Shown in pieces: positions 4,732 through 43,184 of a DNA stretch of 64,000 bases. The DNA lies in assembly GCA_963578725.1 (NCBI GenBank), contig CAUZDS010000010.1, forward strand, positions 15,686 through 79,685, read 5' to 3'. Positions within the stretch are counted from its first letter, which is position 1, and every line of letters starts with the position of its first letter. This stretch comes from Vicinamibacteria bacterium. Lineage in GTDB: Bacteria > Acidobacteriota > Vicinamibacteria > Vicinamibacterales > UBA8438. Below the pieces are notes generated by a model that saw only the letters and a program-made list of their open reading frames with translations, was not told the DNA's origin and did not search any database. A program made the position numbers and the translations under genes.

Positions 4732-7473
4732 TCAGCGATCGATTTCCGCCAACGTTACCTCTTCCGGGTCGACACGTACACGGCTCACGCGGCCCCGCGT
4801 CGGTATCCGGACTGCCGTCACACGGTCGGTCACCGGCACGACGACCGCCTCCTCCTCGCCGGACCCGTACGCCAGAGTCACGGTGACCGGTAAATCGAAG
4901 ATTCGTTCGGTCAGCTGTTCGAACCGCAGCACGACTTCCTCGCCCTGGGTCGTGTTCTCAACCTGATGCGAGAACCGCAGTTCCGGCAGTGCCGACTCGT
5001 GGATCCAGCGCTCGAAGAACCGGGTCAGCGACCTTCCGGACTCGATCTCGAACGCCAGCTGCAGCGCGTCGGTCCCAGCCTTCTGGAACCGCCACTGATG
5101 ATAGAAGCGTCGGAGACCGGCGAAGAACGCATCGTCGCCGATCAACCCACGCAACATGTGCAGCACCATGGCGCCCTTGTTGTACACGAGTGCTCGGAAA
5201 ATCCGTGGCTCGCCATCGAGATGGCCAAGGCGGTAGCCGAGATAGATCGGGCCCTCGTCGGAGTGCTGCATCGCCCAGCGCCTCATCTGGCTCAAGATGT
5301 CGTGGAAAAGCTCAGGGCCGCCTATCTGCTCGGCGTAGAGCGCGGCGAAGTACTGGGCGAGCCCCTCGCTGAGCCACTGCTCGTGGTAGTTCTTCCAGCC
5401 CACCGCCTGTCCCCACCACTGGTGCGCAACTTCGTGCGCCAGGAAGAAGTCAGGGTAGCGGCTAAAGCTTACGGGATCGGTCCGCCACGACAGCATTTGG
5501 CCAGGCTGCCTGGGCAGGGCCTTGTTCATGATGGCGAAGTACGAGGGGCTGTGACCCCCTGGCAACCGGCTGTCGGTTAGCGTCACCGTCATCGATGGGA
5601 AGGGGATATCACCCAGCAGTGCGGCGTAGAACGACGCGATGTCCGCCGTCCGGTTAACGAGGCTCTCTACCTCGTCCACGCCCCGCTCGGTGGCGTACCC
5701 GTCGATCGCCAGCGTGTCGTAGATCACGGCGCCATTCGCGCGGGTCACCGACGGTGAAACCACGTCATCCGGCAGCCGGATCATGCGCTGCAGCGGCGTG
5801 TGGTCATGGAATCTGGAGATCAAAGCCGACAGGTAGCGTGCCGGCTGGACGGCGACGAAGGAGAACCGGCGTGGACTGCTTCCCTCGGACAGACCGACCG
5901 GCGGGTTCGTGGCCAGCGGGTTACCACTGGCGACGACACCCCAGCCGGCGGGCACCGTCAACTCGAGTGCCGCGGTGGCGTAGTCGCTGGAGGGCGTTTG
6001 CGGGTACCAGTAGCTCCGGTTGCTGTAGATGTAGCGGGGTTCCCCAAGGCCAAACAAGGCTGTGGCTTCGAATATGAAGGACCGGCTGGCGATCCAGTTC
6101 TCATCGAGCTGCTGTGCTGGCAAGTCGCCCGCGTACGTCACGTTGAGGGTGAACTCGGTGCCACCCGGTACCTCCGACGGCAGGTTCACGACAACGGTGC
6201 TCTGTCCGGTCAGCCGGGCATAGAGCAGGGACCCGAATTCGGGCGACGTGATCGACGTCACCGTCAGCTCGTTGGCCAGGCGTAGACTGAACGCCGCGAT
6301 CGGCAGCCCCTTCACCCGTACCGTGAGCCGGGCGGCACCTTCGATCCGGCACCCGATCAGCTCCGGTACGTCCCGCAACGACTGCTGCGCGGTACCGAGC
6401 GGCTCGAACGAGGCGGAAATGTTGTAATCCAGCACGTCGAGCGGCACGATATCGTCGTCACCGAAGTAGCGTCCTTGGGTCGCCCGCTTCCGTGCCGACT
6501 GGTAGATCGAAATGACCCGGCTGGTCTCGCGCTCGTAGAGCGAGATGTCTTCCGGTTGCTGCCCCGATTGCGCGTAGGTCAGGGTGCCGTCGCGCTTCGT
6601 GCGCACCTCGGCGATGAAGTCACCGACGCCTGGATTCAGCGACCACAGGCGGTCGCTGATGCCGGAGAGGTCGAGGGTGAACGACAGGCCGATGAACTCG
6701 TCGAACACCTCGGTGGCTTCCCTGAACGTGTCGGGGTCGACCGACCGCTCCACGAGCCCGCTCGTGGAGACCCGCGAGTTGAACACGTCCGGGTGCAAAC
6801 GGATAAACGCCGCCTCGAACTCAGTTTCCAGCGTCTCGTTACCGCTGAAGATCCGGACCTGACCCTGCTCCGCCTCCGGTTGGGGGCTGAAGTTCATGAT
6901 CCCTGTGCCCAGCAGCACCAGTCCGGTGACGCCAAGCTCGGTCTCGGCCACGAACACCGACCCCTCGGTTAGCGTCAGCGACAGGTCATCGCCGAGTACC
7001 ACCATGTTGGCGGCGTCGTATTGCCGGGTTGGGGTCAGACGGAGATGTCGTAACCCCTCGATCGAGTCGACATGGATCTGGTCTCGGATAGACCAGACCG
7101 CCTCGTCGCCTTCCACGATCTCGAGCCGCCAGGTCTCTAACCATCCGCGCTCGTCCGATTCGGCGAACATCTCGATGGTGAGCTCGTAGCCGCCGCCTTC
7201 CGGCAGGTCGTCCAGCGGTATCAGCAAGCGGGGGGTAACCGTGACGCGGTCCGCGTCCGGGTATACGTTCTCGGCCGCGAACACCAACGCCGCCGCTTTG
7301 TCGGCCGCCGGCGACAGCAGCGACAGATAGGCCTCTGGCTCGCCGGCGAGGATTGCCTGTTCCAGGCTCTCGACCAGGGGCTCGTAGGCCGGTGCCTCAG
7401 CGGGCTGCGCCGAGGTGGGGTCGGCGAGCGCCGTCACCGCAACTAATACCACGAGGAGACGCCGTGTGATCAT
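4732..7473 (-). CDS. Secreted M1-family zinc aminopeptidase
   Basis: HEVAHQWWG followed by X18 and E (WLSEGLAQY), i.e. the HEXXH-X18-E gluzincin signature. Start placed at ATG 7473 (MITRRLLVVLVAVTALA signal peptide). The upstream 98 codons of ORF 4732..7767 look non-coding and contain the intergenic repeat. Confidence 0.9.
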   Translation of the reverse strand: MITRRLLVVLVAVTALADPTSAQPAEAPAYEPLVESLEQAILAGEPEAYLSLLSPAADKAAALVFAAENVYPDADRVTVTPRLLIPLDDLPEGGGYELTIEMFAESDERGWLETWRLEIVEGDEAVWSIRDQIHVDSIEGLRHLRLTPTRQYDAANMVVLGDDLSLTLTEGSVFVAETELGVTGLVLLGTGIMNFSPQPEAEQGQVRIFSGNETLETEFEAAFIRLHPDVFNSRVSTSGLVERSVDPDTFREATEVFDEFIGLSFTLDLSGISDRLWSLNPGVGDFIAEVRTKRDGTLTYAQSGQQPEDISLYERETSRVISIYQSARKRATQGRYFGDDDIVPLDVLDYNISASFEPLGTAQQSLRDVPELIGCRIEGAARLTVRVKGLPIAAFSLRLANELTVTSITSPEFGSLLYARLTGQSTVVVNLPSEVPGGTEFTLNVTYAGDLPAQQLDENWIASRSFIFEATALFGLGEPRYIYSNRSYWYPQTPSSDYATAALELTVPAGWGVVASGNPLATNPPVGLSEGSSPRRFSFVAVQPARYLSALISRFHDHTPLQRMIRLPDDVVSPSVTRANGAVIYDTLAIDGYATERGVDEVESLVNRTADIASFYAALLGDIPFPSMTVTLTDSRLPGGHSPSYFAIMNKALPRQPGQMLSWRTDPVSFSRYPDFFLAHEVAHQWWGQAVGWKNYHEQWLSEGLAQYFAALYAEQIGGPELFHDILSQMRRWAMQHSDEGPIYLGYRLGHLDGEPRIFRALVYNKGAMVLHMLRGLIGDDAFFAGLRRFYHQWRFQKAGTDALQLAFEIESGRSLTRFFERWIHESALPELRFSHQVENTTQGEEVVLRFEQLTERIFDLPVTVTLAYGSGEEEAVVVPVTDRVTAVRIPTRGRVSRVRVDPEEVTLAEIDR

Positions 7474-7557
7474 GGCGGGGAGCTTCTGATGGCACCTCGC
7501 GTGGCACCGAGTCCTGTCGTGGTCGATGCCGTGCTCGGCCAGTGCCGAGCGCGATGC

Positions 7558-7656
7558 GGGAGCACATTGAGGCCTCTGTGACCGAGGAACAACGCCGTCC
7601 AGCCGAGATGCGGCCACGCCGGTTGAAGGTAGGGGGGGTTCATCACGGACTCCTGG
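7558..7656 (-). repeat. Copy A of a ~100-nt conserved intergenic element (candidate structured RNA or REP/MITE-like repeat)
   Basis: The reverse complement reads ccAGGAGTCCGTGATGAAcccccccTAccTTCaACCGGCGtggccGCATCtCGgCTGGACGGCGTTGtTCCTCGGTCACAgaggCCtcAATgTGCTCCC. It aligns along its length with 31445-31541. It lies 85 nt upstream of the peptidase start. Confidence 0.7.
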
Positions 7657-7766
7657 ATTCTTCGAACGGGACTGTTCGTCACCACTGGGCCACGTTTCGT
7701 TCGCTCGCGCCACGAGCTCTGTGAGTAATATCTGTTCGCAAGACAGAGTATCGCCAGTCGGATGCA

Positions 7767-8984
7767 CTACGCCGCCGCGCGGAACCGAGCCGTAAAGGTT
7801 GCTATTTTATCGTAGATCGTCTCGAGCTCTGGTGGTGGCGCTAGGAAGACGATGCGCAGGAACCCGTCGCGCGGGTCGGTACCGAACCCCGAGCCATAGA
7901 CGCACAGCAACCCGGTCTCACGCAGTAGCCCGATGACGTAATCCACGTCGGTTCGGCCCGCCGGCAACTCGACCTTCGGCATGGCATAGAACGCTGCGCG
8001 CGGCGGGACGCACGAGATGCCCTCGATCCCGCTCAACCGTCTGGCCGTCACTTCCGCCCGCTCGCGCAGCGCGTGGATGAAGGTCGCCTTGTGGTCGTCG
8101 TTGCCGGTCAACGCCGCCGAGATGGCGAACTGCATCGGTCCGGTACTGCAGAGCCGACCGTCGGCGAGTTCCTTGATGGCACCGAGTACCGCGTTGAGCC
8201 GCTCGCCGCCGCTGACGGCGAGCCAGCCGGCGCGCCAGCCGGGAGCTTGGTAGGTCTTCGAGATCGATGAGAACGAGATGACCGGCGCGTCGGGGTCGAT
8301 CGACCCGAGCGGCGGCACCGGCGCGTCGTAGGCGAGATCTGCGTAGACCTCGTCGGCCAGGATCACGATGCCGCGCGAATCCGCCAGCTCCACGATCGCG
8401 CGGCGAGTCTCGGTGGAATAGACTGCGCCGGTCGGGTTGTTCGGATCGATGAGGACGATCGCGCGGGTCGCGGGTCCGAGCAGGCTCTCGATGTGGGCCA
8501 GATCGGGCATCCACCCGTTGCTTGGATCGGTGCGGTAGAAGACGCCACGAGCGCCCAGCTTGGCGAGCGTCGCGGTGTAGAACGGGTAGGTCGGCACCGG
8601 CACCAGCACCTCATCGCCCGTGTTAACCAGCACGGACAGCACGAGTTCGATGCCTTCGGAGGTGCCCGACGTGAGGATGACGCGGTCCGGCTCGATCGGT
8701 AGCCCCGCCGCCGCATAGGACCCGGCGACCGCCTCGCGGACCTGCCAGATACCAGCAGCCGGTGTATACCCGTTCGCGCCGTCTCGTATGGCCCGCTCGA
8801 CCGCCTCGACCAGGTGCGGCGGTGTGCGAAACCCAAAGGCGACTGGGTCTCCGATGTTGAGGTACGTGACCCGACGCCCGCTCTCTTCCACTTTCCTGGC
8901 TTCCGCCACGACGTTGCGGATGGCATAGGCGAAGCCTTTGAGGCGGCCTCCGACGGCGATCGCTGCGGGCGCACGCGCAACCAT
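7767..8984 (-). CDS. Class I/II PLP-dependent aminotransferase (AlaA/AspC-like)
   Basis: 405 aa. PLP-lysine context SFSSISKTYQAPGWRAGW and N-terminal YLNIGDP are typical of alanine/aspartate aminotransferases. Confidence 0.9.
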   Translation of the reverse strand: MVARAPAAIAVGGRLKGFAYAIRNVVAEARKVEESGRRVTYLNIGDPVAFGFRTPPHLVEAVERAIRDGANGYTPAAGIWQVREAVAGSYAAAGLPIEPDRVILTSGTSEGIELVLSVLVNTGDEVLVPVPTYPFYTATLAKLGARGVFYRTDPSNGWMPDLAHIESLLGPATRAIVLIDPNNPTGAVYSTETRRAIVELADSRGIVILADEVYADLAYDAPVPPLGSIDPDAPVISFSSISKTYQAPGWRAGWLAVSGGERLNAVLGAIKELADGRLCSTGPMQFAISAALTGNDDHKATFIHALRERAEVTARRLSGIEGISCVPPRAAFYAMPKVELPAGRTDVDYVIGLLRETGLLCVYGSGFGTDPRDGFLRIVFLAPPPELETIYDKIATFTARFRAAA

Positions 8985-28225: not shown

Positions 28226-29161
28226 TCAGATCGCCGGCGCCGTCACGGCGCCGGCGATCGAACCAACGAGCGCATCTACCGAGAGACCATGGCGCTCGCG
28301 AAGATATGCCTGCGTGCCTACCCGTGAGTCGAACGCCGATGGAATTCCGATGCGCATCAGTCGCGCGCGCGGGGCGTCCTGCTCAGCCAATACCTCGGCC
28401 ACGGCGCCACCGAGACCGCCGATGACGCTGTGCTCCTCGATGGTCACGACCATGGCGGTTTGCCGCGCCGCCGTGACGACGGCGTCCGTATCCAGGGGCT
28501 TCAGGGTGTGCATGCTGAAGACGGTGGCCTCGAGCCGGTGCTGGCGCGACAGCTCCTCCGCCGCTGCCATCGTATTGGCGAGCAGGCCACCGGTCGTAAT
28601 GAGCGTCAGATCACCGCCCTCGCGAACACGAATCGCTTGCCCGATTCTGAAGTCGATGGGGCCCGTGTGCACCTGCGGCTCTCCGGCCTTGCCAAGCCGC
28701 ACGTAGCAAGGACCGGAGCGGGCGATGACCGCGGGTACCGCGCGCGCGGCTTCGGTCGGATCGCCGGGCGCGATGACGGTCATACCAGGCAGAGACCGCA
28801 TGATCGCGAGATCTTCGGTGGCGTGGTGGGACACGCCCAGCGCGCCGTAAGCGAACCCGCCCCCGACCGCCGTAATCTTGACGTCTGCTCCGTGATAGCA
28901 GATGTCGTTACGCACCTGCTCGAGACAGCGGAAAGTTGGGAAGTTCGCGATCGAGTACGTGAAGACGATCTGACCGCTGAGTGCCAGGCCCGCCGCGACG
29001 CCGGCCATGTTTTGCTCTGCCACCCCGACGTTCAAGAACTGATTCGGAAAACGAGCGGCGAACTGATCCACGACCGAGTAGCCGAGATCACCGACCACAA
29101 GGGTGACCCGCGAGTCGGCCTCGGCCGCCTGGAACAGCGCGTCCATGAAGCCGGTCCTCAT
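28226..29161 (-). CDS. Transketolase, C-terminal (pyrimidine-binding) subunit
   Basis: 311 aa. FLNVGVAEQNMAGVAAGLALSG and the C-terminal domain of split transketolases. The start overlaps the upstream stop by 4 nt. Confidence 0.9.
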   Translation of the reverse strand: MRTGFMDALFQAAEADSRVTLVVGDLGYSVVDQFAARFPNQFLNVGVAEQNMAGVAAGLALSGQIVFTYSIANFPTFRCLEQVRNDICYHGADVKITAVGGGFAYGALGVSHHATEDLAIMRSLPGMTVIAPGDPTEAARAVPAVIARSGPCYVRLGKAGEPQVHTGPIDFRIGQAIRVREGGDLTLITTGGLLANTMAAAEELSRQHRLEATVFSMHTLKPLDTDAVVTAARQTAMVVTIEEHSVIGGLGGAVAEVLAEQDAPRARLMRIGIPSAFDSRVGTQAYLRERHGLSVDALVGSIAGAVTAPAI

Positions 29162-29994
29162 GCCGATGTCAACTCTTCGAGGGCCAGCGCCAGCTCGTCG
29201 TCTTCCGGTGGCCTATAGTGCCAAGCCAACCGGTTTTCCATGAAACTCACGCCTTTACCCTTCACGGTGTGCGCGATAAGGCACGTGGGACGGTGAGCCT
29301 GGAGCGGCAACGTGTCCATTGCCGCATCGATCTTCGCGAGGTCGTGGCCGTCAATCTCGCGAACCGCCCAGCCGAAGGCGCGCCACTTGTCGGCTAGCGG
29401 ATCGAGATTCAACACGTCTTCGACCCGTCCGAGACTTTGGATCTTGTTGTAGTCGACGATCGCGACGAGGTTGTCGAGGCGATGATGGGGTGCGAACAGT
29501 ACCGCCTCCCACGTTGACCCCTCGTCGCATTCGCCGTCACTGAGCACGGTGAAGACGCGATAGTCGGCGCCCGCGCGGCGGCCGGCCAGGGCCATCCCGC
29601 AGGCGATCGACAGACCGTGGCCCAACGAACCGGTCGACACGTCAATGCCCGGGGTGCCGGCGGTCGCATGACCGGCCAGCAGGGTCCCGTTCTGATAGAA
29701 CGTGTCGAGCCACTCGACCGGAAAGTACCCGCGCTCGGCCAACGCCGCGTAGAGCGCCACGCACGCATGTCCCTTGCTGAGGACCATCCTGTCGCGACCT
29801 TCCCACGCCGGGCGGGTGGGGTCGACCCTGAGGCGGCCGCCGTAGAGCACCGCGAGCAGGTCGGCGATGGACAAGGCACTGCCGATGTGTGAGCTCCGGG
29901 CGCGGTGCACCATCTGCACCGAGCGCATCCGAATCGTCCGCGCAAGATCACGATATCGCTGGTGCTGGGAACGCTCGGCTTCCACGATGGGCAT
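29158..29994 (-). CDS. Transketolase, N-terminal (ThDP-binding) subunit
   Basis: 278 aa. SHIGSALSIADLL, STGSLGHGLS and the ThDP motif LSDGECDEGSTWEA. Confidence 0.9.
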   Translation of the reverse strand: MPIVEAERSQHQRYRDLARTIRMRSVQMVHRARSSHIGSALSIADLLAVLYGGRLRVDPTRPAWEGRDRMVLSKGHACVALYAALAERGYFPVEWLDTFYQNGTLLAGHATAGTPGIDVSTGSLGHGLSIACGMALAGRRAGADYRVFTVLSDGECDEGSTWEAVLFAPHHRLDNLVAIVDYNKIQSLGRVEDVLNLDPLADKWRAFGWAVREIDGHDLAKIDAAMDTLPLQAHRPTCLIAHTVKGKGVSFMENRLAWHYRPPEDDELALALEELTSA

Positions 29995-30729
29995 CTACTC
30001 GATGCGCGCGAACCCGACGTACGGATCCCACGGGAAGCGCTTGATCTCCAACCGATTCAGCCCTATCGCCTCCACCGTCGCCAGCGTCTCCCCCGGCCAG
30101 ATCGGATTGTCGAGCTCGTCGAACGCGATCACCGCGCCCTTCGGCATCCGCGGCACCAAGTGCTCGAGCGCCGTCCGCGTGGGCTCGTACAGATCCAAGT
30201 CGAGGAAGAGCAGGCTCACAACGAGGTGACCATGTTCAGCCAGGAACGCCGGGATGGTCTTGGTTACGTCGCCCTTGACGAGGTGCACCTTATCGATGTG
30301 CCCCAGAAACCGGTCCGAATCGTAGACTCGGATGAGCTCCTGCAGCTCGTCGTATGCGTCGGCCCGAAGCCCTCCCTCGTGGGGTGACTGCCGCGGGTTA
30401 CGGTCCTTGTCCGCCACGCCGGGAAAGCCCTCGAAGCTGTCGAAGCCGTAGATCCGGCGCGTCAGGTTCGCGGGCTCCAGCACGGCGCTCAAGTGTGCCC
30501 AGGTCATCAGGCTGAAGCCACGGAATACCCCGCACTCGACGATCGACCCCTTGACGTCCAGGACGCTCTTGAACAGCTCGTAGAGGGTGATGAAACGTGT
30601 GATCGTCTTGCGCCGCGCGTAGCGCGGAAAAGTCTCGAGCCGCGTGTCGACGCTGTCACGGCTCGTCTCGAAGATACGCTCGAGCTCGGCCCCGACGCCC
30701 TCCTCGGCTGCGGTGCGCAGAGCCTTCAT
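29995..30729 (-). CDS. TylF/MycF-family (macrocin-type) O-methyltransferase
   Basis: 244 aa. IVECGVFRGFSLM and YGFDSFEGFP motifs characteristic of TylF-like sugar O-methyltransferases. Confidence 0.85.
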   Translation of the reverse strand: MKALRTAAEEGVGAELERIFETSRDSVDTRLETFPRYARRKTITRFITLYELFKSVLDVKGSIVECGVFRGFSLMTWAHLSAVLEPANLTRRIYGFDSFEGFPGVADKDRNPRQSPHEGGLRADAYDELQELIRVYDSDRFLGHIDKVHLVKGDVTKTIPAFLAEHGHLVVSLLFLDLDLYEPTRTALEHLVPRMPKGAVIAFDELDNPIWPGETLATVEAIGLNRLEIKRFPWDPYVGFARIE

Positions 30730-31692: not shown

Positions 31693-32775
31693 TCAGGTCG
31701 CCCGTGCTTGACCGGCGCCGGCCAGGACTTCGAGTATCGTGTCCGCGCCGACGGCTGCACTCTTGCCCACGTTGAAGACCACTTCGTCGCGCAAACGCGC
31801 GAGCCCTGCGGGCTCCGCGGTCTTCAGTGAAAGCAGTTCCCTCGCGACGCTCGGGGTGTCGACGGCCGCCTGCGGCTCGAGCACGCGACCGAGGCGCTCG
31901 CGTATGCCGACTTCCACCGGCTCCAAACCGAGGGCCGCGTACGGCGGGTTGCGGACCTTTCGCGGCGTGTCGATGAACAGTACCGGCCGGCCCGTGCTCA
32001 GTCCGAACTCCAAGGCCGCCCCTGACCAGTCGCTGACGAGCAGGCCGGCCTCGCAAAACGATCGATCGGCGTGCGCGGCCGTATCGAGCTCGAAGCGCGA
32101 CACGCCGTCGAACGCCGCCAGGATGGCCAAGAGCGCCGGAGACGCCATTCGCCATTGCATAGGATGGGGGCGGAGTCGCACCCGATATCCCCCGTCGAGC
32201 AACGCCTTGATTACCGCCTGACCATTGTGTTCGATGAGGGAGCTCGCTCCCCACGACGGGGCGACGAGGATAACCGGGTCGGTCGCGCTGGGCCTGACGT
32301 CTTGAGTGGCAAGCAGCAGCGCGTCAAGACGTGTCGAACCGTGATCGACCAGATGCTTTGCTCGGACACCGTATCGGTTTTCGCGCGCCCTGATCTCGCG
32401 GCTGTGATGCGGCCCCACGCACAAGACGGTATCGTAGGCGTCGAACGAGTCGGCGCGGTAGATCATGTGCGTGCTGTTGATGGCGTGGAATACGTAGACG
32501 TAGTGCACCGGGTGTATCGACCGCTTGAGGTGGAACACCCCGAGGTCGGGCATCGTCATGACGACAAGGTCGGCGTCGAGCGCTCGGAACAGGATCGTTC
32601 GCGCGTGGCCCTCACCGATGTGGAAGGCGGACACGAGAGCAGATTCCAACTGGAATATGGGGTCGTCCGCTGCGGTGGCCAGGACGCTCACGGGCTGCCC
32701 GTGTGTGTCGACCAACCGACGCAGGATGCCGGACAGGTGCGGCCAGTCAGCGGCGCTCTCGACATAGAACACCAC
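31693..32775 (-). CDS. TagF-like CDP-alcohol phosphotransferase family protein (putative phospho-substituent transferase)
   Basis: ILVAPSWG (cf. YAPTWR), RLRPHP and LLVSDWSGAALEFGLSTGRPVLFID (cf. LITDYSS..FDF...KP.IF) resemble the CDP-glycerol glycerophosphotransferase family. Start set at GTG 32775, downstream of the preceding gene's stop. The listed ORF start 32967 overlaps that gene. Confidence 0.6.
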   Translation of the reverse strand: MVFYVESAADWPHLSGILRRLVDTHGQPVSVLATAADDPIFQLESALVSAFHIGEGHARTILFRALDADLVVMTMPDLGVFHLKRSIHPVHYVYVFHAINSTHMIYRADSFDAYDTVLCVGPHHSREIRARENRYGVRAKHLVDHGSTRLDALLLATQDVRPSATDPVILVAPSWGASSLIEHNGQAVIKALLDGGYRVRLRPHPMQWRMASPALLAILAAFDGVSRFELDTAAHADRSFCEAGLLVSDWSGAALEFGLSTGRPVLFIDTPRKVRNPPYAALGLEPVEVGIRERLGRVLEPQAAVDTPSVARELLSLKTAEPAGLARLRDEVVFNVGKSAAVGADTILEVLAGAGQARAT

Positions 32776-32839
32776 GCGCCGGCGTTCGCGAGGCTGGCGG
32801 GCAAAGCGCCAGGCCGCGGCCAAAGGGTGAGGCCTGCGT

Positions 32840-33622
32840 TCAGTCGAGCACGCAGAACCGGTCAAGGGTGTCCTCGCGCGCGAGACGAGCGTAGAGCTCG
32901 AGGTCAGCCACCGTGTCGACTTCGAGCCAGCCTCCCGCTTGCGAAACGGCGTGGACGCGCAGGCCATGCTCGATGAGCAACTGGAGCAAGTCGGTCATAT
33001 GCAGCTGATCGCGCCCACGGCCCCTGAACACCGTGGCGCGATCGAGACTGTCGTAGAGCTTCAGCACTCGAGGCATTGCCGCGGCGGCGATGCGGAACAG
33101 GCCGATGTATTGCGCATCGATCTGATCGTAACTGTCGGCTACGGCCCCGACCTCCCGGATGAGACCGTCCGGGCCGAGGCGCAGCGTTTCCGCGTCTGTC
33201 AGGGGATTCGCCATCCGAGCCTCCCAGTACGTCCGCCACGCCGAGTCGACAACCACGGCCACGTCACCGACCGAATCCGCCAGCCTCCGAGCCACCCTCG
33301 GCTCGAACACGACGTCGCCATACGTCACGATCACGTCGTCGGTCGATTCGAGCCACGACCGTGCGGCCATGAGGCTGGTGACCATGTTCGTGGTTTCGTA
33401 GTCGGGATTCTCGAACACCCGACATCCCTGCGCGGCTGCGCGCACCTGGCTGGCACGATACCCCGCCACGACCGCGATGTCGCGCACGCCGATGGTCCGC
33501 AGCGTACTCAGCTGTCGGTCGAGCAGCGAGCGGCCGTTCAGGGGAATCAGGCACTTCGGCCGCACGGCGGTATGCGGCATCAATCTGGTACCCTGACCGG
33601 CCGCGAGAATCACCGCCTTCAT
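32840..33622 (-). CDS. LicC-like nucleotidyltransferase (putative cytidylyltransferase, Cj1416-like role)
   Basis: MKAVILAAGQGTRLMPHT..PKCLIPL (G-x-G-T-R-L NTP-transferase signature). About 260 aa. ATG 33622 overlaps the upstream stop (ATGA). Confidence 0.85.
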   Translation of the reverse strand: MKAVILAAGQGTRLMPHTAVRPKCLIPLNGRSLLDRQLSTLRTIGVRDIAVVAGYRASQVRAAAQGCRVFENPDYETTNMVTSLMAARSWLESTDDVIVTYGDVVFEPRVARRLADSVGDVAVVVDSAWRTYWEARMANPLTDAETLRLGPDGLIREVGAVADSYDQIDAQYIGLFRIAAAAMPRVLKLYDSLDRATVFRGRGRDQLHMTDLLQLLIEHGLRVHAVSQAGGWLEVDTVADLELYARLAREDTLDRFCVLD

Positions 33623-34260
33623 CGGTCTCCCCGGAGCCACGCGACCAGCGCGCGGGCCGTCGCTTCAGGCACCCCCACCCGCTCGGGGTGCCACATGACC
33701 CCGAGGAAGGGCTGCTCGCGATGGACGAACGCCTCGACCGAGGCCCCGCCGTCTGCGAGCGCCAAGGGGCGCAGGCCATCCGCCAGGTCGTCCGAGGGAA
33801 TGACCCACCGGTGAAAGCTATTGACGTCGAATCGCTCGGGCCAGTCCGCTGGCGCCGGTCCAACGACGTGCACCCGATGGGGACGCGCGACGTGCCGATC
33901 GTCCTGGACAAGGCGTCCCCCGGCGAGCGCGTGGAGTACCTGCGCCCCCCGACAGATGCCCAGCACCGGTGCCCCCCGTCCCGCAGCGATGTCCACGAGT
34001 TGGGCCTCGAGGCGATCACGTTCCGGCGCAGTTCCTTCGGTCGTCGACGCGAGGCCAGTGTCGTTACCACCGCTCAGCACGAGGCCATCGATCCCCAGAT
34101 CGTCAAAGAAGATGGATGGCGCGGCCAACACGTTTGGCACCGGTATCGGGAGACAGTCGCCTTCGATCAACAAGCGGGCGAGAGCCTGATCAAGGCAGTC
34201 CCATCGCTCACACCGACTGTCCGGCACGAACACACGGGTGGTCACCGCGATGCGTCTCAC
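33619..34260 (-). CDS. Peptidase C26 / class-I glutamine-amidotransferase-like gamma-glutamyl amidohydrolase (Cj1417-like role)
   Basis: 213 aa. Nucleophile elbow GICRGAQVL and the His-Glu pair in GVMWHPER. The start overlaps the upstream stop by 4 nt. Confidence 0.85.
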   Translation of the reverse strand: MRRIAVTTRVFVPDSRCERWDCLDQALARLLIEGDCLPIPVPNVLAAPSIFFDDLGIDGLVLSGGNDTGLASTTEGTAPERDRLEAQLVDIAAGRGAPVLGICRGAQVLHALAGGRLVQDDRHVARPHRVHVVGPAPADWPERFDVNSFHRWVIPSDDLADGLRPLALADGGASVEAFVHREQPFLGVMWHPERVGVPEATARALVAWLRGDR

Positions 34261-37200
34261 AGGAGCCGCTCGAGCCGCTGACTCTCGGAGTCGACGAGAA
34301 CTGTCTTGGCGGGTTGGAGTTGGTCGCGGAGGACCGGCCCGATTCCAATCGCGGCAGGCAGCCCCAACTCCGCCGCACGCACTGCCATGTGGGAATTGGC
34401 CCCGCCGAAGACCGTGACCAAGCCGGCGATGCCCTCGGTGAAGAGCCAGTCGTAGCCGGGATCAGCCTGCGGCACCATGACGACGGCCCCGCGCAACGCC
34501 TGCTCGGGTCGTGTGACGTGCTCGAGCACTACAAGGGGACCGATTGCCCGACTGCGGCCGACGAAATTCGGCCGCCCCCGCGACAGGCGAAACCCCCACA
34601 GGTCTCGCGACTCGAAGATGAGGGGCGGGAGCTCCACAGCCTGCACGACCGCATACCAGTCACGACCGTCCTCGACCCAGCCATGGAGATGTGTCGAGCT
34701 TGCATTACCGACCAGGAGCGCCTCGAAGTGTCTCCAGTCCAGGTATGACAGGTCGTCACGGGACAGACCGGCGGTTGAGCCAAGCTCCACGAGAGCATCG
34801 AGGGCCAGGCTCAGGTTGCGCGTGAAACGAAACTTCGCGAGCTCCCGACCTTCGATCGATTCCCGACAAAAGCGCTCGAAACGTGTGACGTCGTCGTCCA
34901 GTCCCAGGGCGCGCAGGCTGTTCGCGAGACGCGAGGCCGCACCCGGAGGCCACGCAAAGTCCGACGGACCGGGCGCCAGCGTCTCCTCTCCGGCCGGCGT
35001 GACGTCCATCTCGGCATAGGTCGGCGCCGTGATTTCATAGGTGCCGGGCCGCAGGTGTCCGTAGTCCGCCAAGAAGTCGTCGCGCGCCAGCGTCCGTGCC
35101 GACACGCGCCCGGCATCCCGAACGAACCGGTTCGTCACCGTACACAACGATCGCATGAAGGCGGACAGCGTCTGCTCGTCGATGATGTCCTCGCTGACGG
35201 CGCTGCGGAGCAGCGACGTGGCGATGAATGCGCGCCGGGCCAGATGAGCGAACGGCAACGTGCCAAATCGTGCGCAGTCATCGAGCAACGCGGCGGCGCG
35301 ATGGAGTGGCCGCCGGCCGCGGTTCAGGATCGCAGCCCGCCGCTGCTCCAAGATCTCGATCGATCTCAGATACACATCGGAGTCCGTCATCCCGCTCCGC
35401 GTAATGTCCGCCAGTGCCGCCCGTAGTGGGCCCAGACCCTCGGCGGGATACCCGTCAGCACACAGCGCGCCGAACCGCCGCTCGAGATCGAGGGTCAGAC
35501 ATGTCAGCGCGACATCGAACTCGATCTTGTCGTGGAGCTCCGGTTCCCGACGCAGCTTCGTCAGATAGGCGTCGACCAGTTGGCCGGCCAGGGGCTCCGC
35601 GAGGGCGGCCGGCACGAACGAGTTGAAGCTGGCGCGAACGTCGACATACGGATGGCCGGCGAGACTGACCACCAGCCGCGCCGGTCGGAGGTCCCGATAC
35701 CCGGACTGCGCCCGTTGCTTCGCCCACACATCATCCGTCACGAGGCGCCGATAGAGGCTGAAGGCCAACGGCCGCGGGCGCTCACCGATGATCTCGGCCG
35801 GATTCCAATCCGGCATGATGCCCCAGGCGGCGGTTCGGCCGACCTGAAACGGCGGCGGGGTCGCGGCGTCCTCGAGGAAGGTCGCGGTCGCTTCGAGCGT
35901 CGCCTGCACTCGCGCGTCACTCGCGGTCCAGGCGCTGTAGTCCGTCGCGATCGGCCGGAGTTGCAGGACCACGACCCTTCCGGCCTCATCCACGGCGAAC
36001 TCGACATCGAGCGCATCGTGGCCGACGAGCCCCTCGAGCTCCGCGAGCGCCGGCAGCACGCGTGACACGATCCCCGAGTCGCCGGTGCTCCGTGTCCCGG
36101 CTTCGTCGCTGAGCACCCGCCGATGCACGAAGATGGTCTCGATGTGCTCACCGCGCCCGGAGGTCACTCCGTTCGTCGAGCTGGTGTTTTCCTCGTAGCT
36201 GAGCACGTAGTACGGGCCACCCCGCCGGATCGTTCTGGTCATGGCGACGCCGGTGGCCATCGGATCCTGCAGCAGCGGTTGGACGAGCACTTGATCCTCG
36301 CCCTCGGCTTCGCCGTACGACGCGATGACACGCCCGACCGCCGCTTTCACTTGTGCGCGGTCGTCAGCCGAGACGTCGGCGACCGAGAGGAACCGACCCG
36401 CCTGGGACGCCACCCACCGGTCTTCGCGCTTCGTGCTGCTCCGGACGATGACCTGCCGCCCCGCGAAGCGCGACCCGATCCGGTCAAGCATCGCGGCCGA
36501 ACTCTGGCGCCATTCGCGGACCGTGCACGCGACCGACTCCAGCACGTGGCAGCGCTGAACAATGGGAGCGAGCCGATCCAGCGTATCGGCCTTTGATCCG
36601 AGTATGAACCGGGCAACCTCTTGCGGTGTGTCAAAGCTTGCCCACTCGCCTGCCGAGTCGAGCCCCCTGACTGGCACACCCCGCTCCACGAGTGTCGCGA
36701 TCAGCTTTGGCAGATTCCAGGACCGCCAGGCCTGTCGTGCCGTCTCGGGGATGGCAAGCAGCACGGCAACGGCCTCGGGCGACAGCTTCAGCAGCCCAAC
36801 GTACTGCGCGTCCGCCGTCTCCGGCGCCACGTCGGTACCAATCGCCGTGATCCGCGGCGGAGCGCCGCTCCGGGATGGAGCCAGACGGACCAACTCCAAG
36901 CTCTTCCGCCGTGAACCCCTGCGTTGCCACTGGCGGTCAACCGCCGCCACGGCCACGGCGTCCGCGCGCATCATCTGCTCAACGAGCGTCGCGGACACCA
37001 TCACGTCTCCGTAGATCACGTAGTAGGTCCGCGACGGTTCCAACGGCACGATCAAGAGAGATCCCGCGCTCCCGGTCGTCGCCCACTCCGGATTCATCGA
37101 GTAGCGCAAGTCAGGGTACCGACTCACGATCTCCTCGAACCGGTATCCTCCTACAAAGTGCACTTCCGGCTGCTGGGCCGCGAACGCGTGCAGGCACCAC

Positions 37201-37313
37201 TGGAGCGCGGCCACGCGTCCCGCTCCCTCGCTGAGCGCCGCTGGAGTCTGACCGCGAAAAGGCCTGCCGGCACCGAGTATCACGAGCGACGGTCGGGACG
37301 GGACGGTCGCCAT
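34257..37313 (-). CDS. Fusion protein: degenerate LicC-like nucleotidyltransferase domain + PPDK_N-type ATP-grasp + PEP-utilizer phosphohistidine swivel domain (putative glutamine-kinase-like enzyme, Cj1418-like role)
   Basis: The N-terminal ~250 aa (LVILGAGRPFRG...YVIYGDVMV...AQYVGLLKL) parallels the neighbouring LicC-like protein. The central region resembles the PEP/pyruvate-binding ATP-grasp. The C-terminus carries GLVTVFGGANSHMAVRAAELGLPAAIGIG with the phospho-carrier His. Start placed at ATG 37313 (TGATG overlap with the upstream ORF). The TTG 37427 extension has lower GC3 than the competing frame. Confidence 0.85.
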   Translation of the reverse strand: MATVPSRPSLVILGAGRPFRGQTPAALSEGAGRVAALQWCLHAFAAQQPEVHFVGGYRFEEIVSRYPDLRYSMNPEWATTGSAGSLLIVPLEPSRTYYVIYGDVMVSATLVEQMMRADAVAVAAVDRQWQRRGSRRKSLELVRLAPSRSGAPPRITAIGTDVAPETADAQYVGLLKLSPEAVAVLLAIPETARQAWRSWNLPKLIATLVERGVPVRGLDSAGEWASFDTPQEVARFILGSKADTLDRLAPIVQRCHVLESVACTVREWRQSSAAMLDRIGSRFAGRQVIVRSSTKREDRWVASQAGRFLSVADVSADDRAQVKAAVGRVIASYGEAEGEDQVLVQPLLQDPMATGVAMTRTIRRGGPYYVLSYEENTSSTNGVTSGRGEHIETIFVHRRVLSDEAGTRSTGDSGIVSRVLPALAELEGLVGHDALDVEFAVDEAGRVVVLQLRPIATDYSAWTASDARVQATLEATATFLEDAATPPPFQVGRTAAWGIMPDWNPAEIIGERPRPLAFSLYRRLVTDDVWAKQRAQSGYRDLRPARLVVSLAGHPYVDVRASFNSFVPAALAEPLAGQLVDAYLTKLRREPELHDKIEFDVALTCLTLDLERRFGALCADGYPAEGLGPLRAALADITRSGMTDSDVYLRSIEILEQRRAAILNRGRRPLHRAAALLDDCARFGTLPFAHLARRAFIATSLLRSAVSEDIIDEQTLSAFMRSLCTVTNRFVRDAGRVSARTLARDDFLADYGHLRPGTYEITAPTYAEMDVTPAGEETLAPGPSDFAWPPGAASRLANSLRALGLDDDVTRFERFCRESIEGRELAKFRFTRNLSLALDALVELGSTAGLSRDDLSYLDWRHFEALLVGNASSTHLHGWVEDGRDWYAVVQAVELPPLIFESRDLWGFRLSRGRPNFVGRSRAIGPLVVLEHVTRPEQALRGAVVMVPQADPGYDWLFTEGIAGLVTVFGGANSHMAVRAAELGLPAAIGIGPVLRDQLQPAKTVLVDSESQRLERLL

Positions 37314-37753
37314 CACGGCGCTCGCGATTCCGACTCGGGAAAGAGTCGGTGCACGACAGCCGCCCGGAGCCGACTGGCCATGAGGTGATATGCGTCTGGC
37401 CGCCCCGGATCCTGCGGAACGGCCCAACCAGGCACCGCCACGACCTTGCGATCATTCACATCCACCTGCGGTGGCGGCCGGCTGATCGTGGCGCGCGTAC
37501 CAACCCCTGTCGCGCGACGGAGAGCCTCCTCGTGAGGCGCCGACGAGCCTGCAGGTCCTTCCGGGTTACGCTGTGGCCAGTGCTCCGCCAGGCGGCTGAC
37601 GAGCGCCGTGGTCGATACCAGGCTGTCTGCGGTGCGCGCGACCGGTCGGTCGGCAACCCACGAGCGGAGCGTACGCGCGAGGGTGGCGGCCAGACCCCCC
37701 GCGTCACCGTGCGGAACGGAGCCCGGAGCAAATTCGGACGCTCCACCCGTCAC
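37313..37753 (-). CDS. Hypothetical protein (~146 aa), translationally coupled on both sides
   Basis: GTG 37753 overlaps the sulfatase-like stop (GTGA). Its TGA overlaps the kinase ATG (TGATG). Hand-counted GC3 is 21/30 in its last 30 codons versus 22/38 for the competing N-terminal extension of the kinase. No motif recognised. The sequence is Ala/Arg/Pro-rich, so it could still be spurious. Confidence 0.4.
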   Translation of the reverse strand: MTGGASEFAPGSVPHGDAGGLAATLARTLRSWVADRPVARTADSLVSTTALVSRLAEHWPQRNPEGPAGSSAPHEEALRRATGVGTRATISRPPPQVDVNDRKVVAVPGWAVPQDPGRPDAYHLMASRLRAAVVHRLFPESESRAP

Positions 37754-40758: not shown

Positions 40759-41823
40759 TTATTTACCTTCTGTCGAGGCGGTCCTTGCGCGTGTGCTCCC
40801 TGCTGGGCGTAGGAATCGAGAACGGATAACGCCACTGATCACCCCCCACAGGCTGCCGAGTCCGTACGCGACATGCAGGCTTGTAAACATCACTGGCATC
40901 ACGAGCAGATACCGGAGGTCCCTCCGCTGCACCGCGACGTCGGCGGACGCCAGCAGGCTTAGCACGCCGTAGGCACCCAGGATGGCCACGAGCCCCCACC
41001 ACGCCACCGGAAGGAAGCTGCCGAGAACCGCCATCGCGCACACGGCGACAACGAACGCCAACGGTACCAGGTGCCGCCACGAGACGGGCATGATCGGGCT
41101 GTTAAAAAATGGCAGTATCGCCCACACGCCATTCCCCCAATTGTGGCGGCAGAACGAACCATACTCCGCCCGGGCGTAATAGTAGCTGACGATGTCCGGT
41201 ACGAGGAGCGTGCGGCCGCCAGCCTTCTTAAGGCGCAGGTTGAATTCCATGTCCTGGCCGCGCGCCAGGGCCTCGTTGAACAGACCGACCCGAGCGAACA
41301 CATCGCGTCGGTAACAGCCGCCAAACACCGTATCCACCCAGCGTGGCTCAGTCGAGTGCACCCGGAAATGCGAGTTCCCCACCCCGAATCGGTGGGACAG
41401 GCTGCTGACGATGGCCCAGCCCAACAGACTCTTCTGTCGCGGAAGCGTGTGCATGTTGCCGCCGACATTGTCAGCGCCATACGTCTGAAGGGCTTCGACC
41501 GACCGCGATACGTACCGAGCGTCGATGAGCGCGTGAGCATCCATGCGCAGGATCATGCTGCCCTGGGCGACGGTGATAGCGGTATTCAGCGCGGCGGGCG
41601 TTATCCCTTTTGGATTGTCGAGCAGCTTGATGCGCGCGTCCCGGGCCGCATAGTCACGGATGATCGCGCCGGTGCCATCCGCGCTGCGGCCGTCCACTAC
41701 CAGGATCTCGAGGCGCTCGCTCGGATAGTCGCTCGCCAGTACGGAGTCCAGACACGCACCGATGAACGGCGCTTCGTTGCGGCACGGGATCACTACCGAG
41801 ACGAACGGGACTGTCGATGTCAT
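40759..41823 (-). CDS. Family 2 glycosyltransferase with C-terminal TM segments
   Basis: VSVVIPCRNEAPFIGACLDSVLASDYP, and MDAHA (DxH/DxD position). C-terminal hydrophobic helices. Confidence 0.9.
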   Translation of the reverse strand: MTSTVPFVSVVIPCRNEAPFIGACLDSVLASDYPSERLEILVVDGRSADGTGAIIRDYAARDARIKLLDNPKGITPAALNTAITVAQGSMILRMDAHALIDARYVSRSVEALQTYGADNVGGNMHTLPRQKSLLGWAIVSSLSHRFGVGNSHFRVHSTEPRWVDTVFGGCYRRDVFARVGLFNEALARGQDMEFNLRLKKAGGRTLLVPDIVSYYYARAEYGSFCRHNWGNGVWAILPFFNSPIMPVSWRHLVPLAFVVAVCAMAVLGSFLPVAWWGLVAILGAYGVLSLLASADVAVQRRDLRYLLVMPVMFTSLHVAYGLGSLWGVISGVIRSRFLRPAGSTRARTASTEGK

Positions 41824-43184
41824 GACATCTCAGACCGTGGTAGACGGTCTTCGGACCAGGAGTGGACGACATCGCGAGCGGTGAAGTAATCGGGGCGGAT
41901 GCCGGGACGCACGAGTTGCCAGAGGTTGGCGCGCGCCGCAGCGCCACGAATGAGACTGCCAATAGCGCGCCGTCGATGAACGCCATTGAATATCTTCAGC
42001 AATCCCATCAGCGACCGCCGCCCTGGCTGACCGCGCTTCGCCAGCCGCGCGAGGTGAGCCGCGGTCCGCTGGACGCCGTCCAGTCCAGACTCAGCGTGGC
42101 CCGCCAGGGCGGCGACCGGCGAGACCGGGTCCGTTGTCCGGTGCGTCACTGCCGCTAGCAAGCCCTCGAAGGTTTGCACACGGGGCAGTTCTTCGAGCCA
42201 GTCGACTCGAAGGAACCATGGATACGGTTCTGGCTCCAGAAGAAACGCCGGCTTTCCAACGGCGTTACCATCGAGCGCGAGCGAGCTGAAGTTGGTGAAG
42301 CACGCTTCGCTGGCTGCGAGCCACTCGTGGGCATTTCCGGCCTTGCAGATGTGTACACAGTCTGGAACTTGTCCCACGAGCTCGCGGAAGCGGTCCTCAT
42401 ATTGGTGAATCGCGATCGCGGGATGCGGTCGCAGCACGATGACGAAGTCGCGGGCGTCGGGCGCATCGTTGAGACTCGCCAGCCAGCGGAAGATCTGATT
42501 GATCGTCCGGCGTACATACGCCGCATGTTCCAGCACTGTCGACTCTTCCGAACCGACGCCGATGCGGCTCCGAACGTGGTACTCACCGAAGAACCCCATG
42601 TGGCACGTCATGGGGAAGAACAACCAGCGCTTGTCGAGGGGTAGCCCAGTCGTGTCGGCGAGGTAGCGCCGAATCGAGGCTACATCGCCGTCGACTTTTC
42701 GCCGAAGCAACGCCAGCGACGGTTTACCGGTGAGCTCGATGTGCGTTGGCTCAACGCCGCAGGAGACCAAGAAGTTACGATAGTCAGCGCCCCAGCTGAC
42801 GTGATGCACGCGGGTCTTCGTGAGATGGTCCCGCGGCGGCCGGAAGCTCTTGTTGATCGGACTCAACACTTGCTCCCAGTTCATGCACGCGTATGTTATC
42901 GAGCGTCCGTAGACGGAGTTGAAGATCGCGTGGATGAACTCGGGGCCGTGCGACTCCGACTTCGACGGGGCTATTCCGGTGGATACCACGACCCGCGGCC
43001 GAATGAAGGCTGCGCTGACTACCGGACTATAGAGCGTCGAAGCGACGGCAACGGATAACCGGTACCGCTCGCGCAATACCCGAGTGACGGCCGCGATGAC
43101 CTCGAGCTCGCGATCGCGATGTTCCACGAAGAACATCACGTCGACGACGCTGCCGTCCCTATACATGGTCGATCGCCGTGTCAC
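41820..43184 (-). CDS. Uncharacterised polysaccharide-locus protein (454 aa), possibly a GT-B/capsule-type transferase
   Basis: Long ORF with the operon's codon bias. 4-nt overlap with the GT2 start. No catalytic motif I can name. The N-terminus (VDVMFFVEHRDRELEV...) vaguely recalls 'surface carbohydrate biosynthesis' proteins. Confidence 0.65.
   Translation of the reverse strand: MTRRSTMYRDGSVVDVMFFVEHRDRELEVIAAVTRVLRERYRLSVAVASTLYSPVVSAAFIRPRVVVSTGIAPSKSESHGPEFIHAIFNSVYGRSITYACMNWEQVLSPINKSFRPPRDHLTKTRVHHVSWGADYRNFLVSCGVEPTHIELTGKPSLALLRRKVDGDVASIRRYLADTTGLPLDKRWLFFPMTCHMGFFGEYHVRSRIGVGSEESTVLEHAAYVRRTINQIFRWLASLNDAPDARDFVIVLRPHPAIAIHQYEDRFRELVGQVPDCVHICKAGNAHEWLAASEACFTNFSSLALDGNAVGKPAFLLEPEPYPWFLRVDWLEELPRVQTFEGLLAAVTHRTTDPVSPVAALAGHAESGLDGVQRTAAHLARLAKRGQPGRRSLMGLLKIFNGVHRRRAIGSLIRGAAARANLWQLVRPGIRPDYFTARDVVHSWSEDRLPRSEMS

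Follow-up and report, generated by a model that had tools for sequence, protein, structure and literature searches.

A nucleotidyltransferase-like domain without its catalytic signature, fused to a predicted L-glutamine kinase in a Vicinamibacteria glycan locus

Introduction

Why would a kinase carry at its N-terminus a nucleotidyltransferase-like domain that has lost its catalytic signature, in a locus that encodes an intact nucleotidyltransferase two genes downstream? The question is raised by a gene in a 64,000-nt stretch of DNA from a Vicinamibacteria bacterium of the phylum Acidobacteriota (GenBank assembly GCA_963578725.1, contig CAUZDS010000010.1, positions 15,686 to 79,685 of the forward strand; this whole stretch is referred to here as the window). 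The gene, at 34257..37313 on the minus strand, encodes a 1018-aa protein that joins a nucleotidyltransferase (NT)-like domain, called the N-domain here, to a predicted L-glutamine kinase of the Cj1418 type. We argue that the N-domain is probably a pseudo-enzyme retained for a role in the pathway to which the kinase belongs.

In Campylobacter, the enzymes Cj1415-Cj1418 convert glutamine, ATP and CTP to CDP-phosphoramidate 3'-phosphate (PMC11800397). In the literature that we searched, glutamine-kinase-based phosphoramidate biosynthesis is confined to Campylobacter capsules (PMC11800397, PMC6429109), the one exception being a structure-based prediction for archaeal Borg elements that concerns different fusions (bioRxiv 10.1101/2024.11.05.622173), and our search of that literature returned no description of the fused form. 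The host genome analysed here (2.74 Mb in 55 contigs, 94% complete) contains a single kinase of this type, as judged by a profile search of its contigs.

Results

The N-domain and the kinase are parts of one protein

The initial annotation, made from the sequence of the window, proposed that the N-domain and the kinase are encoded by a single gene beginning at the ATG at 37313, and our analysis confirms this. A scan of the window for open reading frames (ORFs) yielded a single open frame at 34257-37427 on the minus strand, and translation from ATG 37313 gives a 1018-aa product that is identical (100%) to a recorded protein (P0002) and contains the motifs LVILGAGRPFRG, YGDVMV and AQYVGLLKL. The stop codon of a small upstream ORF overlaps this ATG. 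A longer product of 1056 aa, starting at TTG 37427, was considered and rejected on the basis of the recorded protein and the N-termini of homologues; because homologues begin 5-20 residues ahead of the conserved VILGAG, the upstream TTG is not needed.

The junction between the two parts (residues 224-248, WASFDTPQEVARFILGSKADTLDRL, 36570..36644, minus strand) joins the last strand and helix of the N-domain directly to the first kinase motif, without a linker in between. All 76 fused proteins align without a gap over the 31 residues that span it, a stretch that ranks with the most conserved of the protein. We therefore consider it highly improbable that the domain is foreign to the kinase, be it through a start codon located downstream, two separate genes, or an assembly or frameshift artefact. 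Pfam by itself makes no call for the N-domain, and we found nothing else in favour of such an artefact; against it stand a single frame free of stops, a gap-free and highly conserved junction, the upstream stop that overlaps ATG 37313, and the recurrence of the fused frame across more than 100 protein clusters and 61 independent genome loci. An artefact of annotation can be set aside, as can the concern that a downstream start would leave the N-domain as a separate region.

The N-domain is homologous to the nucleotidyltransferase encoded nearby

The N-domain corresponds to residues 1-235 (36609..37313, minus strand). Residues 1-250 align by BLASTP with the stand-alone NT of the same locus at an E-value of 2e-16, with 24% identity over 214 residues, a similarity that, at the level of sequence, is far beyond chance. 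Pfam analysis of the isolated domain produced a sub-threshold match to NTP_transf_3 (E 0.003, 18 bits versus a gathering cut-off of 27), and analysis of the whole protein produced matches to PPDK_N (PF01326) and PEP-utilizers (PF00391) only; because the NTP_transf_3 match is sub-threshold on the isolated domain and absent on the whole protein, the label "degenerate" is apt.

An AlphaFold2 model of the N-domain, built on 53 orthologous N-domains, has a mean per-residue confidence (pLDDT) of 94 and a predicted template-modelling score (pTM) of 0.91. The top Foldseek matches to this model in the PDB are all nucleotidyltransferases, namely GlmU, inositol-1-phosphate cytidylyltransferase (IPCT), PntC, LicC and MurU, with E-values of about 1e-11 and TM-scores of 0.65-0.74 when normalised to the query; structures of GMPPA/GMPPB (7D72, 7D74) are also among the fold matches. 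A profile built from the N-domain matches GlmU and LicC with an E-value of 3e-6. The initial annotation had described the domain as a paralogue of the adjacent LicC-like protein, a description that would have failed had no NT fold been found, and both the BLASTP alignment and the model bear it out.

The catalytic signature is lost and much of the cleft is kept

To compare catalytic residues, we placed 61 fused N-domains and 73 stand-alone NTs, all taken from one set of loci, in a single alignment. The canonical signature, (L)AAGxGTRL...RPKxL, is replaced in the 1018-aa protein by an altered loop (residues 13-27, LGAGRPFRGQTPAAL, 37233..37277, minus strand) that reads GAGRPFRG...TPAA, is 5 residues shorter than the loop of the stand-alone NT, and has Ala25 where the canonical Lys would be. 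The loop also varies by lineage among N-domains, reading RPFRG, RAVRG, KSKQF or APQVG. The second Gly of GxG and the Arg of GTR are present in 73/73 stand-alone NTs and in only 8/61 and 23/61 N-domains, respectively, and the Lys of PK, likewise found in 73/73 stand-alone NTs, is kept in about 0/61 N-domains (27 have Ser and 12 have Ala). Other active-site motifs follow the same pattern: the Asn of TNMV (72/73 versus 2/61), the Met of TNMV (73/73 versus 0/61), the Asp of DAE (73/73 versus 0/61), the Thr of MT (73/73 versus 4/61) and the Asp of EVD (73/73 versus 18/61, with Asn in 32). The proposal that GAGRPFRG takes the place of the canonical GxGTRL loop therefore holds. Because the GxGTR...PK signature, kept by every one of the stand-alone paralogues, has been lost, CTP-dependent cytidylyl transfer by the N-domain is unlikely, and the domain most likely no longer forms a CDP-product from CTP; of the possibilities raised in the initial annotation, "possibly non-catalytic" is the better reading.

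A different set of residues is retained. Asp103 (the Asp of YGD) is present in 58/61 N-domains, D126 in 56/61, R136 in 50/61, E145 in 57/61, W224 in 58/61 and E226 in 55/61. The acids expected to serve as metal ligands, D103 and D228, are both present in the copy studied here. In the model, the conserved clusters lie mostly at, or just past, the C-terminal ends of beta-strands, positions that would line the ligand cleft if the topology of the known fold applies. The alignment thus describes a domain whose residues for binding and activating a nucleoside triphosphate appear to be lost and whose cleft appears to be still constrained.

In the lineage of the 1018-aa protein the cleft seems to have decayed further. 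Its closest relatives are P0003 and P0004 (60% and 55% identical), and in all three proteins E226 is replaced by Ser and K146 is missing; E145 is also replaced in the 1018-aa protein and in the nearer relative, P0003.

The remainder of the protein is a predicted L-glutamine kinase

Residues 232-1017 match NCBIfam NF004508 (PRK05849, 789 positions) from model position 5 to 788 with 814-815 bits, well above the curated cut-off of 501. Because unfused kinases of 773-788 aa begin at G(T/S)KA(E/D)TL, typically GTKAETL, which corresponds to residue ~238 here, we place the domain boundary at residue ~235. The full-length model (pLDDT 90, pTM 0.87) has rifampin phosphotransferase as its nearest solved fold (Foldseek, E 1e-20), followed by NT folds that match the N-domain.

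The initial annotation called the fusion three-part, which undercounts it: the model and the fold matches distinguish four modules. Behind the NT-like module lies an ATP-grasp (PPDK_N-type) nucleotide-binding part (residues ~236-465, 35919..36608, minus strand), identified by PF01326 and by the rifampin phosphotransferase match, in which R291-S292-S293, E297-D298, E438 and Q451-R453 are invariant among 76 sequences. It is followed by a central, mostly helical domain (residues ~466-900, 34614..35918, minus strand; delimited by the secondary structure of the model and by Foldseek matches to 5FBS and 5HV1), which contains the invariant segment MPDWNPAE at residues 500-507 and is presumed, by analogy with the substrate domain of rifampin phosphotransferase, to bind L-glutamine. 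The last module is a phosphohistidine swivel domain (PEP-utilizers; residues 942-1010, 34284..34490, minus strand; PF00391 E 5e-12) with a GGxNSH motif whose G970, G971, N973, S974 and H975 are invariant in the 76 sequences; the codon for the catalytic His975 is at 34389-34391. With the family match, both catalytic domains including the catalytic His, and both operon partners in place, residues 236-1018 are, by sequence, a Cj1418-type L-glutamine kinase. Pfam PF27448 is also listed for some of the relatives found in the homologue search.

The fusion is old, widespread and tightly integrated

The initial annotation considered the fusion unusual, which our searches contradict. A first homologue search returned ~105 clusters of 990-1066 aa that span the query from end to end; their sources include Pseudomonadota, Armatimonadota, Nitrospinota and Cyanobacteria, and the names given there include "choline kinase", "glutamine kinase" and "PEP/pyruvate-binding domain-containing protein". 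We then scanned for the kinase family using one genome per species, which confirmed at least 581 loci, and compared the best 80 of these together with the window, 81 loci in all. An NT-like domain is fused to the kinase in 61 of the 81, the kinase stands alone in 13, and an APS-kinase-like domain is fused to it in 7. The 61 fused loci include those of Legionella septentrionalis, Pseudomonas brenneri, Marinobacter, Halomonas, Acidimicrobiia, Solirubrobacterales and Flavobacteriales, as well as a Helicobacteraceae metagenome-assembled genome (MAG), the archaeon Haloferax elongans and a genome of the Nomurabacteria, which belong to the candidate phyla radiation (CPR). Among 1.84 billion proteins, the N-domain profile matched ~644 cluster representatives at E <= 1e-30, and the full-length matches are mostly about 1000 aa. 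The fused kinase is, then, a variant of a known pathway enzyme that is widespread in databases. Within the phylum of the host the kinase family is sporadic, occurring in 3 of the 301 genomes sampled, and it was not found in 4 genomes of the host's own family.

We asked whether short matches to the N-domain profile (~250-275 aa) might be free-standing degenerate domains and rejected the idea: they are mostly truncated fused proteins that continue into GTKAESL, and three are canonical NTs. The latter (P0354, P0358 and P0360; L093:117-890) are stand-alone NTs of ~250 aa with an intact GxGxRL...PK signature. P0354, P0358 and P0360 score equally (~195 bits) on the N-domain and Cj1416-like profiles, P0358 adjoins a transporter gene of the major facilitator superfamily and not a kinase gene, and the three may represent a broader family ancestral to both groups of NTs.

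We built a tree of 134 NT sequences. In it, a branch with SH-aLRT (Shimodaira-Hasegawa-like approximate likelihood ratio test) support of 99 has all 61 N-domains on one side, and their division into subclades parallels that of the stand-alone NTs encoded at the same loci. In the 52 loci where all four parts are present, the N-domain is the most divergent, with a median pairwise identity of 31%, compared with 46% for the stand-alone NT, 42% for the kinase and 40% for the hydrolase that accompanies them. The N-domains of a Spirochaetaceae MAG (L050:9992-10681) and of the Helicobacteraceae MAG (L051:10001-10675) retain AAGxG...PKCL, branch nearest to the stand-alone clade and are the least derived fused domains that we saw. 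Together with the gapless junction, these data indicate a single old fusion that was followed by faster, constrained evolution of the N-domain and by its rigid integration into the kinase.

The seven kinases with an APS-kinase-like domain at the N-terminus (L060, L066, L072, L073 at 5870-8941, L077, L078 and L079) come from MAGs of Acidobacteriota, Planctomycetota, Vulcanimicrobiota and Alphaproteobacteria. This partner belongs to an enzyme family of the pathway, that of Cj1415. Since two fusion-partner architectures exist, the kinase N-terminus has acquired partners of two different kinds.

The locus encodes predicted pathway partners and a canonical nucleotidyltransferase

On the minus strand, starting from the side at which transcription begins, the gene order is a sulfatase-fold membrane protein, the small ORF, the fused kinase, a Cj1417-like hydrolase, the canonical NT, a 424-aa ORF, a priming transferase (Bac_transf), a TylF-type methyltransferase, a split transketolase and a further methyltransferase. 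The hydrolase gene (33619..34260, minus strand), which overlaps the kinase stop by 4 nt, encodes a class-I glutamine-amidotransferase/C26 protein (Peptidase_C26, E 2e-22) that is a candidate gamma-glutamyl-CDP-amidate hydrolase. The stand-alone NT (32840..33640, minus strand; NTP_transf_3, E 8e-24) retains AAGQGTRL...RPKCL, TNMV, YGD, DAETL and EVD, and is a candidate CTP:phosphoglutamine cytidylyltransferase with the role of Cj1416.

The stand-alone NT is found in 56/61 fused loci, usually ~600 nt past the kinase, and the hydrolase in 58/61, with the exceptions mostly at contig ends. Because a stand-alone NT accompanies 56 of the 61 fused kinases, the N-domain is an addition to the Cj1416 role and not a replacement for it; the idea that the N-domain is the only Cj1416 equivalent in its locus is excluded by that count and by the canonical copy present here.

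The 424-aa ORF has no match in Pfam or NCBIfam. A profile built from 23 of its orthologues matches TarL, Cps3D and TagF (E 1e-4 to 4e-4) over the catalytic region, which makes the product a distant TagF/TarL-like CDP-dependent phosphotransferase and a candidate for transferring the activated group (31693..32832, minus strand). Its listed ATG at 32967 overlaps the NT gene by 128 nt; because of this overlap, and because orthologues align from about residue 45, the true start probably lies downstream of 32967. Orthologues scoring above 290 bits occur in 32/61 fused loci and in none of the other loci.

We found no Cj1415-type (APS-kinase-like) 3'-kinase between positions 24000 and 48000 of the window. 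The only match to APS kinase (PF01583) in the genome is a 589-aa frame on another contig, which presumably serves sulfate assimilation. When loci with at least 5 kb of flanking sequence on both sides are compared, 5/39 fused loci have an APS-kinase-like gene nearby, and 12/14 of the others have one nearby or joined to the kinase. On the kinase tree, fusion state changes only twice; because there are only 2 independent changes, this anticorrelation is a property of clades that cannot be tested statistically. In six fused loci the N-domain coexists with an APS-kinase-like gene. The suggestion that the N-domain substitutes directly for Cj1415 is, in view of those six loci and the two independent changes, unsupported.

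Several other features of the region and the genome were recorded. The two halves of the split transketolase (N and C, with a 4-nt overlap) and the TylF-type O-methyltransferase occupy 28226-30729 (minus strand) and follow immediately after the priming transferase and the phosphoramidate-type genes; the O-methylation step may fall to the TylF-type enzyme. A 454-aa ORF at 41820-43184 (minus strand), which matches no family, overlaps a GT2 gene. A relationship between it and the TagF-like ORF was considered and none was detected (hhalign probability 0.1%). The genome also encodes SelB (L086:61-2007) and probably uses selenocysteine. This SelB is 78% identical to a Vicinamibacterales entry, and its remaining named matches come from Acidobacteria, as would suit an Acidobacteriota host of the Vicinamibacterales type.

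Discussion

Comparison with known systems

The system most similar to the fused kinase is Cj1418 of C. jejuni, the L-glutamine kinase (EC 2.7.3.13) that carries out the first step in making the O-methyl phosphoramidate group of the capsule. Residues 232-1017 correspond to its family model, NF004508, from end to end and include ATP-grasp and His swivel domains, and within a glycan locus the gene shares its operon with those for a Cj1417-like hydrolase and a Cj1416-like NT. The protein described here differs in its extra 235-residue NT-like N-domain, in the lack of a Cj1415-type kinase in the locus, in the TagF-like candidate transferase and in its Acidobacteriota host. Cj1418 is not known to carry an N-domain, which agrees with the 789 positions of its family model and with the many unfused relatives of 773-800 aa; no Campylobacter entry was among the 120 matches listed in our homologue search. 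For the transfer step C. jejuni uses Cj1421/Cj1422. Measured against the Cj1415-Cj1418 donor pathway as a whole, the present locus departs from it in having no gene for a Cj1415-type 3'-kinase.

With cytidylyltransferases of the Cj1416/LicC type (1JYK; IPCT, 2XME; PntC, 6PD1), the N-domain shares its fold, detectable sequence homology, the Asp of YGD, a D-x-x-W segment and a W-x-E strand. It differs from them in lacking GxGTR...PK, TNMV, the Asp of DAE and the Thr of MT, in its shorter and lineage-variable loop, and in being fused to a kinase. Fusions of a cytidylyltransferase to the enzyme of a neighbouring step are known from phosphonate pathways, in PntC-AEPT (6PD1), Fom1 and FrbH, which resemble the present case in that an NT domain is joined to a neighbouring enzyme in a pathway of unusual phosphorus chemistry. 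In those proteins the NT domain is an active catalyst with no second copy known, whereas the N-domain has lost the signature and an intact second NT is nearby in 56/61 fused loci.

GMPPA offers a further parallel. It is an inactive NT paralogue that regulates GMPPB allosterically, and both its allosteric ligand and its complex with GMPPB are known; the large subunit of plant ADP-glucose pyrophosphorylase is likewise an inactive NT paralogue with a regulatory role. Like GMPPA (7D72-7D74), the N-domain is a paralogue that has the NT fold, carries a changed signature loop and occurs alongside the active paralogue of its pathway, a likeness drawn here from sequence and predicted fold. GMPPA is a separate subunit, whereas the N-domain is part of the same chain as the enzyme one step earlier in the pathway. 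We propose that the N-domain works as GMPPA does, by sensing a ligand or binding a partner.

A proposed role for the N-domain

By comparison with the Campylobacter pathway (PMC11800397, PMC6429109), the kinase would make N-phospho-L-glutamine, the stand-alone NT two genes downstream would form CDP-L-glutamine from it, and the Cj1417-like hydrolase would release cytidine diphosphoramidate. The context of the locus suggests that the TagF-like enzyme would then move the phosphoramidate from this unphosphorylated CDP donor to a glycan, with no 3'-phosphorylation, and that one of the methyltransferases would finish the group. A pair consisting of a cytidylyltransferase and a TagF-like protein has been proposed to act through CDP-threonine in the flagellin glycan of C. 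difficile (PMC10714395).

In our preferred reading, to which we assign a probability of roughly 0.6, selection keeps the N-domain as a pseudo-enzyme module that binds a pathway ligand of the CDP type or a phospho-ligand, or that docks the stand-alone NT, and thereby regulates the first two steps; alternatively, it may couple those steps by handing on the labile N-phospho-glutamine. The data narrow the two roles put forward in the initial annotation, a coupling of phosphorylation to nucleotidylylation and the sensing of CTP or CDP-products. The loss of the Arg and Lys residues that would bind a triphosphate argues against a CTP site and is compatible with a site for a CDP-type or phospho-ligand or with partner docking.

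Several points weigh against this reading. The inactivity of the N-domain is read from its residues, and Arg17 and Arg20 of the present copy could still contact a phosphate; Arg is kept at the canonical column in 23 of the 61 N-domains, and we found no solved Cj1416 structure with which to compare them. Conservation that centres on the cleft would be compatible, too, with a domain whose catalysis has changed. The replacement of E145 and E226 and the loss of K146 in the lineage of this protein mean that a role in ligand binding may be weakened there. As for the pathway itself, the best NCBIfam match of the hydrolase, NF045546 (GCDPHdlase), reaches 90 bits, which is under the cut-off of 250.

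The N-domain could instead be a structural relic, a once-active cytidylyltransferase made redundant by the stand-alone copy that now helps to fold, stabilise or oligomerise the kinase and has neither ligand nor partner. Its faster evolution (31% median identity versus 40-46% for its neighbours), its drifting signature loop, its rigid, linker-free junction in a model with high full-length pTM, and the extra losses in the cleft of this lineage all agree with this, as does the existence of kinases that lack the N-domain and presumably work. If packing were its only function, however, conservation should be found at the surface or interface, and not at the strand ends of the cleft, where D103, D126, R136, E145 and E226 are kept; the domain has also remained full-length across many phyla, and we regard the relic as rather unlikely. 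It is unlikely, too, that the N-domain is still an enzyme with a changed chemistry or substrate, such as an Mg-dependent transferase or hydrolase whose substrate is a CDP-linked intermediate, or a nucleotidyltransferase that works independently of Arg and Lys. Such an enzyme would catalyse a step absent from Campylobacter, possibly one that compensates for the missing Cj1415-type kinase. In its favour, the residues conserved across the family (D103, D126, R132/R136, E145-K146 and E226) are at the cleft, the E-K pair resembles the phosphate-binding EKP motif of sugar-1-phosphate NTs, Cj1415-like kinases are rarer near fused than near other loci, and in this genome the sole APS-kinase match is remote from the locus. 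The signature loop, however, is the most variable part of the N-domain, unlike an active site, and the well-studied NTs of this fold are all known to use basic residues of that loop; moreover, the APS-kinase anticorrelation reduces to two independent changes, six fused loci possess both the N-domain and an APS-kinase-like gene, and the present copy is without E145, K146 and E226.

A related and quite unlikely reading holds that the N-domain has been repurposed, so that an Mg-binding cleft formed by D103, D126, R136 and, in most copies, E145-K146 and E226 catalyses a new conversion of a CDP-linked or phospho-glutamine intermediate, or else channels N-phospho-glutamine to the stand-alone cytidylyltransferase. 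If this were true, the fused form would represent a second, more widespread and 3'-kinase-free route to phosphoramidate donors.

Implications

The fused form combines a cytidylyltransferase domain that lacks its signature with the kinase, usually with no 3'-kinase and often with a TagF-like transferase, and many phyla have free-living members that possess it. Some of these carriers are culturable species of Pseudomonas, Marinobacter, Halomonas and Legionella, among them Pseudomonas brenneri DSM 15294, Marinobacter zhanjiangensis and Halomonas alkalisoli. Its distribution suggests that it may be at least as common as the unfused form of the Campylobacter type. The protein encoded in the window is one more member of this form, with an N-domain that is somewhat more decayed than others. 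Establishing what the N-domain does would show how a labile P-N intermediate passes from one enzyme to the next, or how the pathway is regulated, and the domain would add to the known pseudo-enzymes a bacterial example that descends from the enzyme of the following step in its own pathway.

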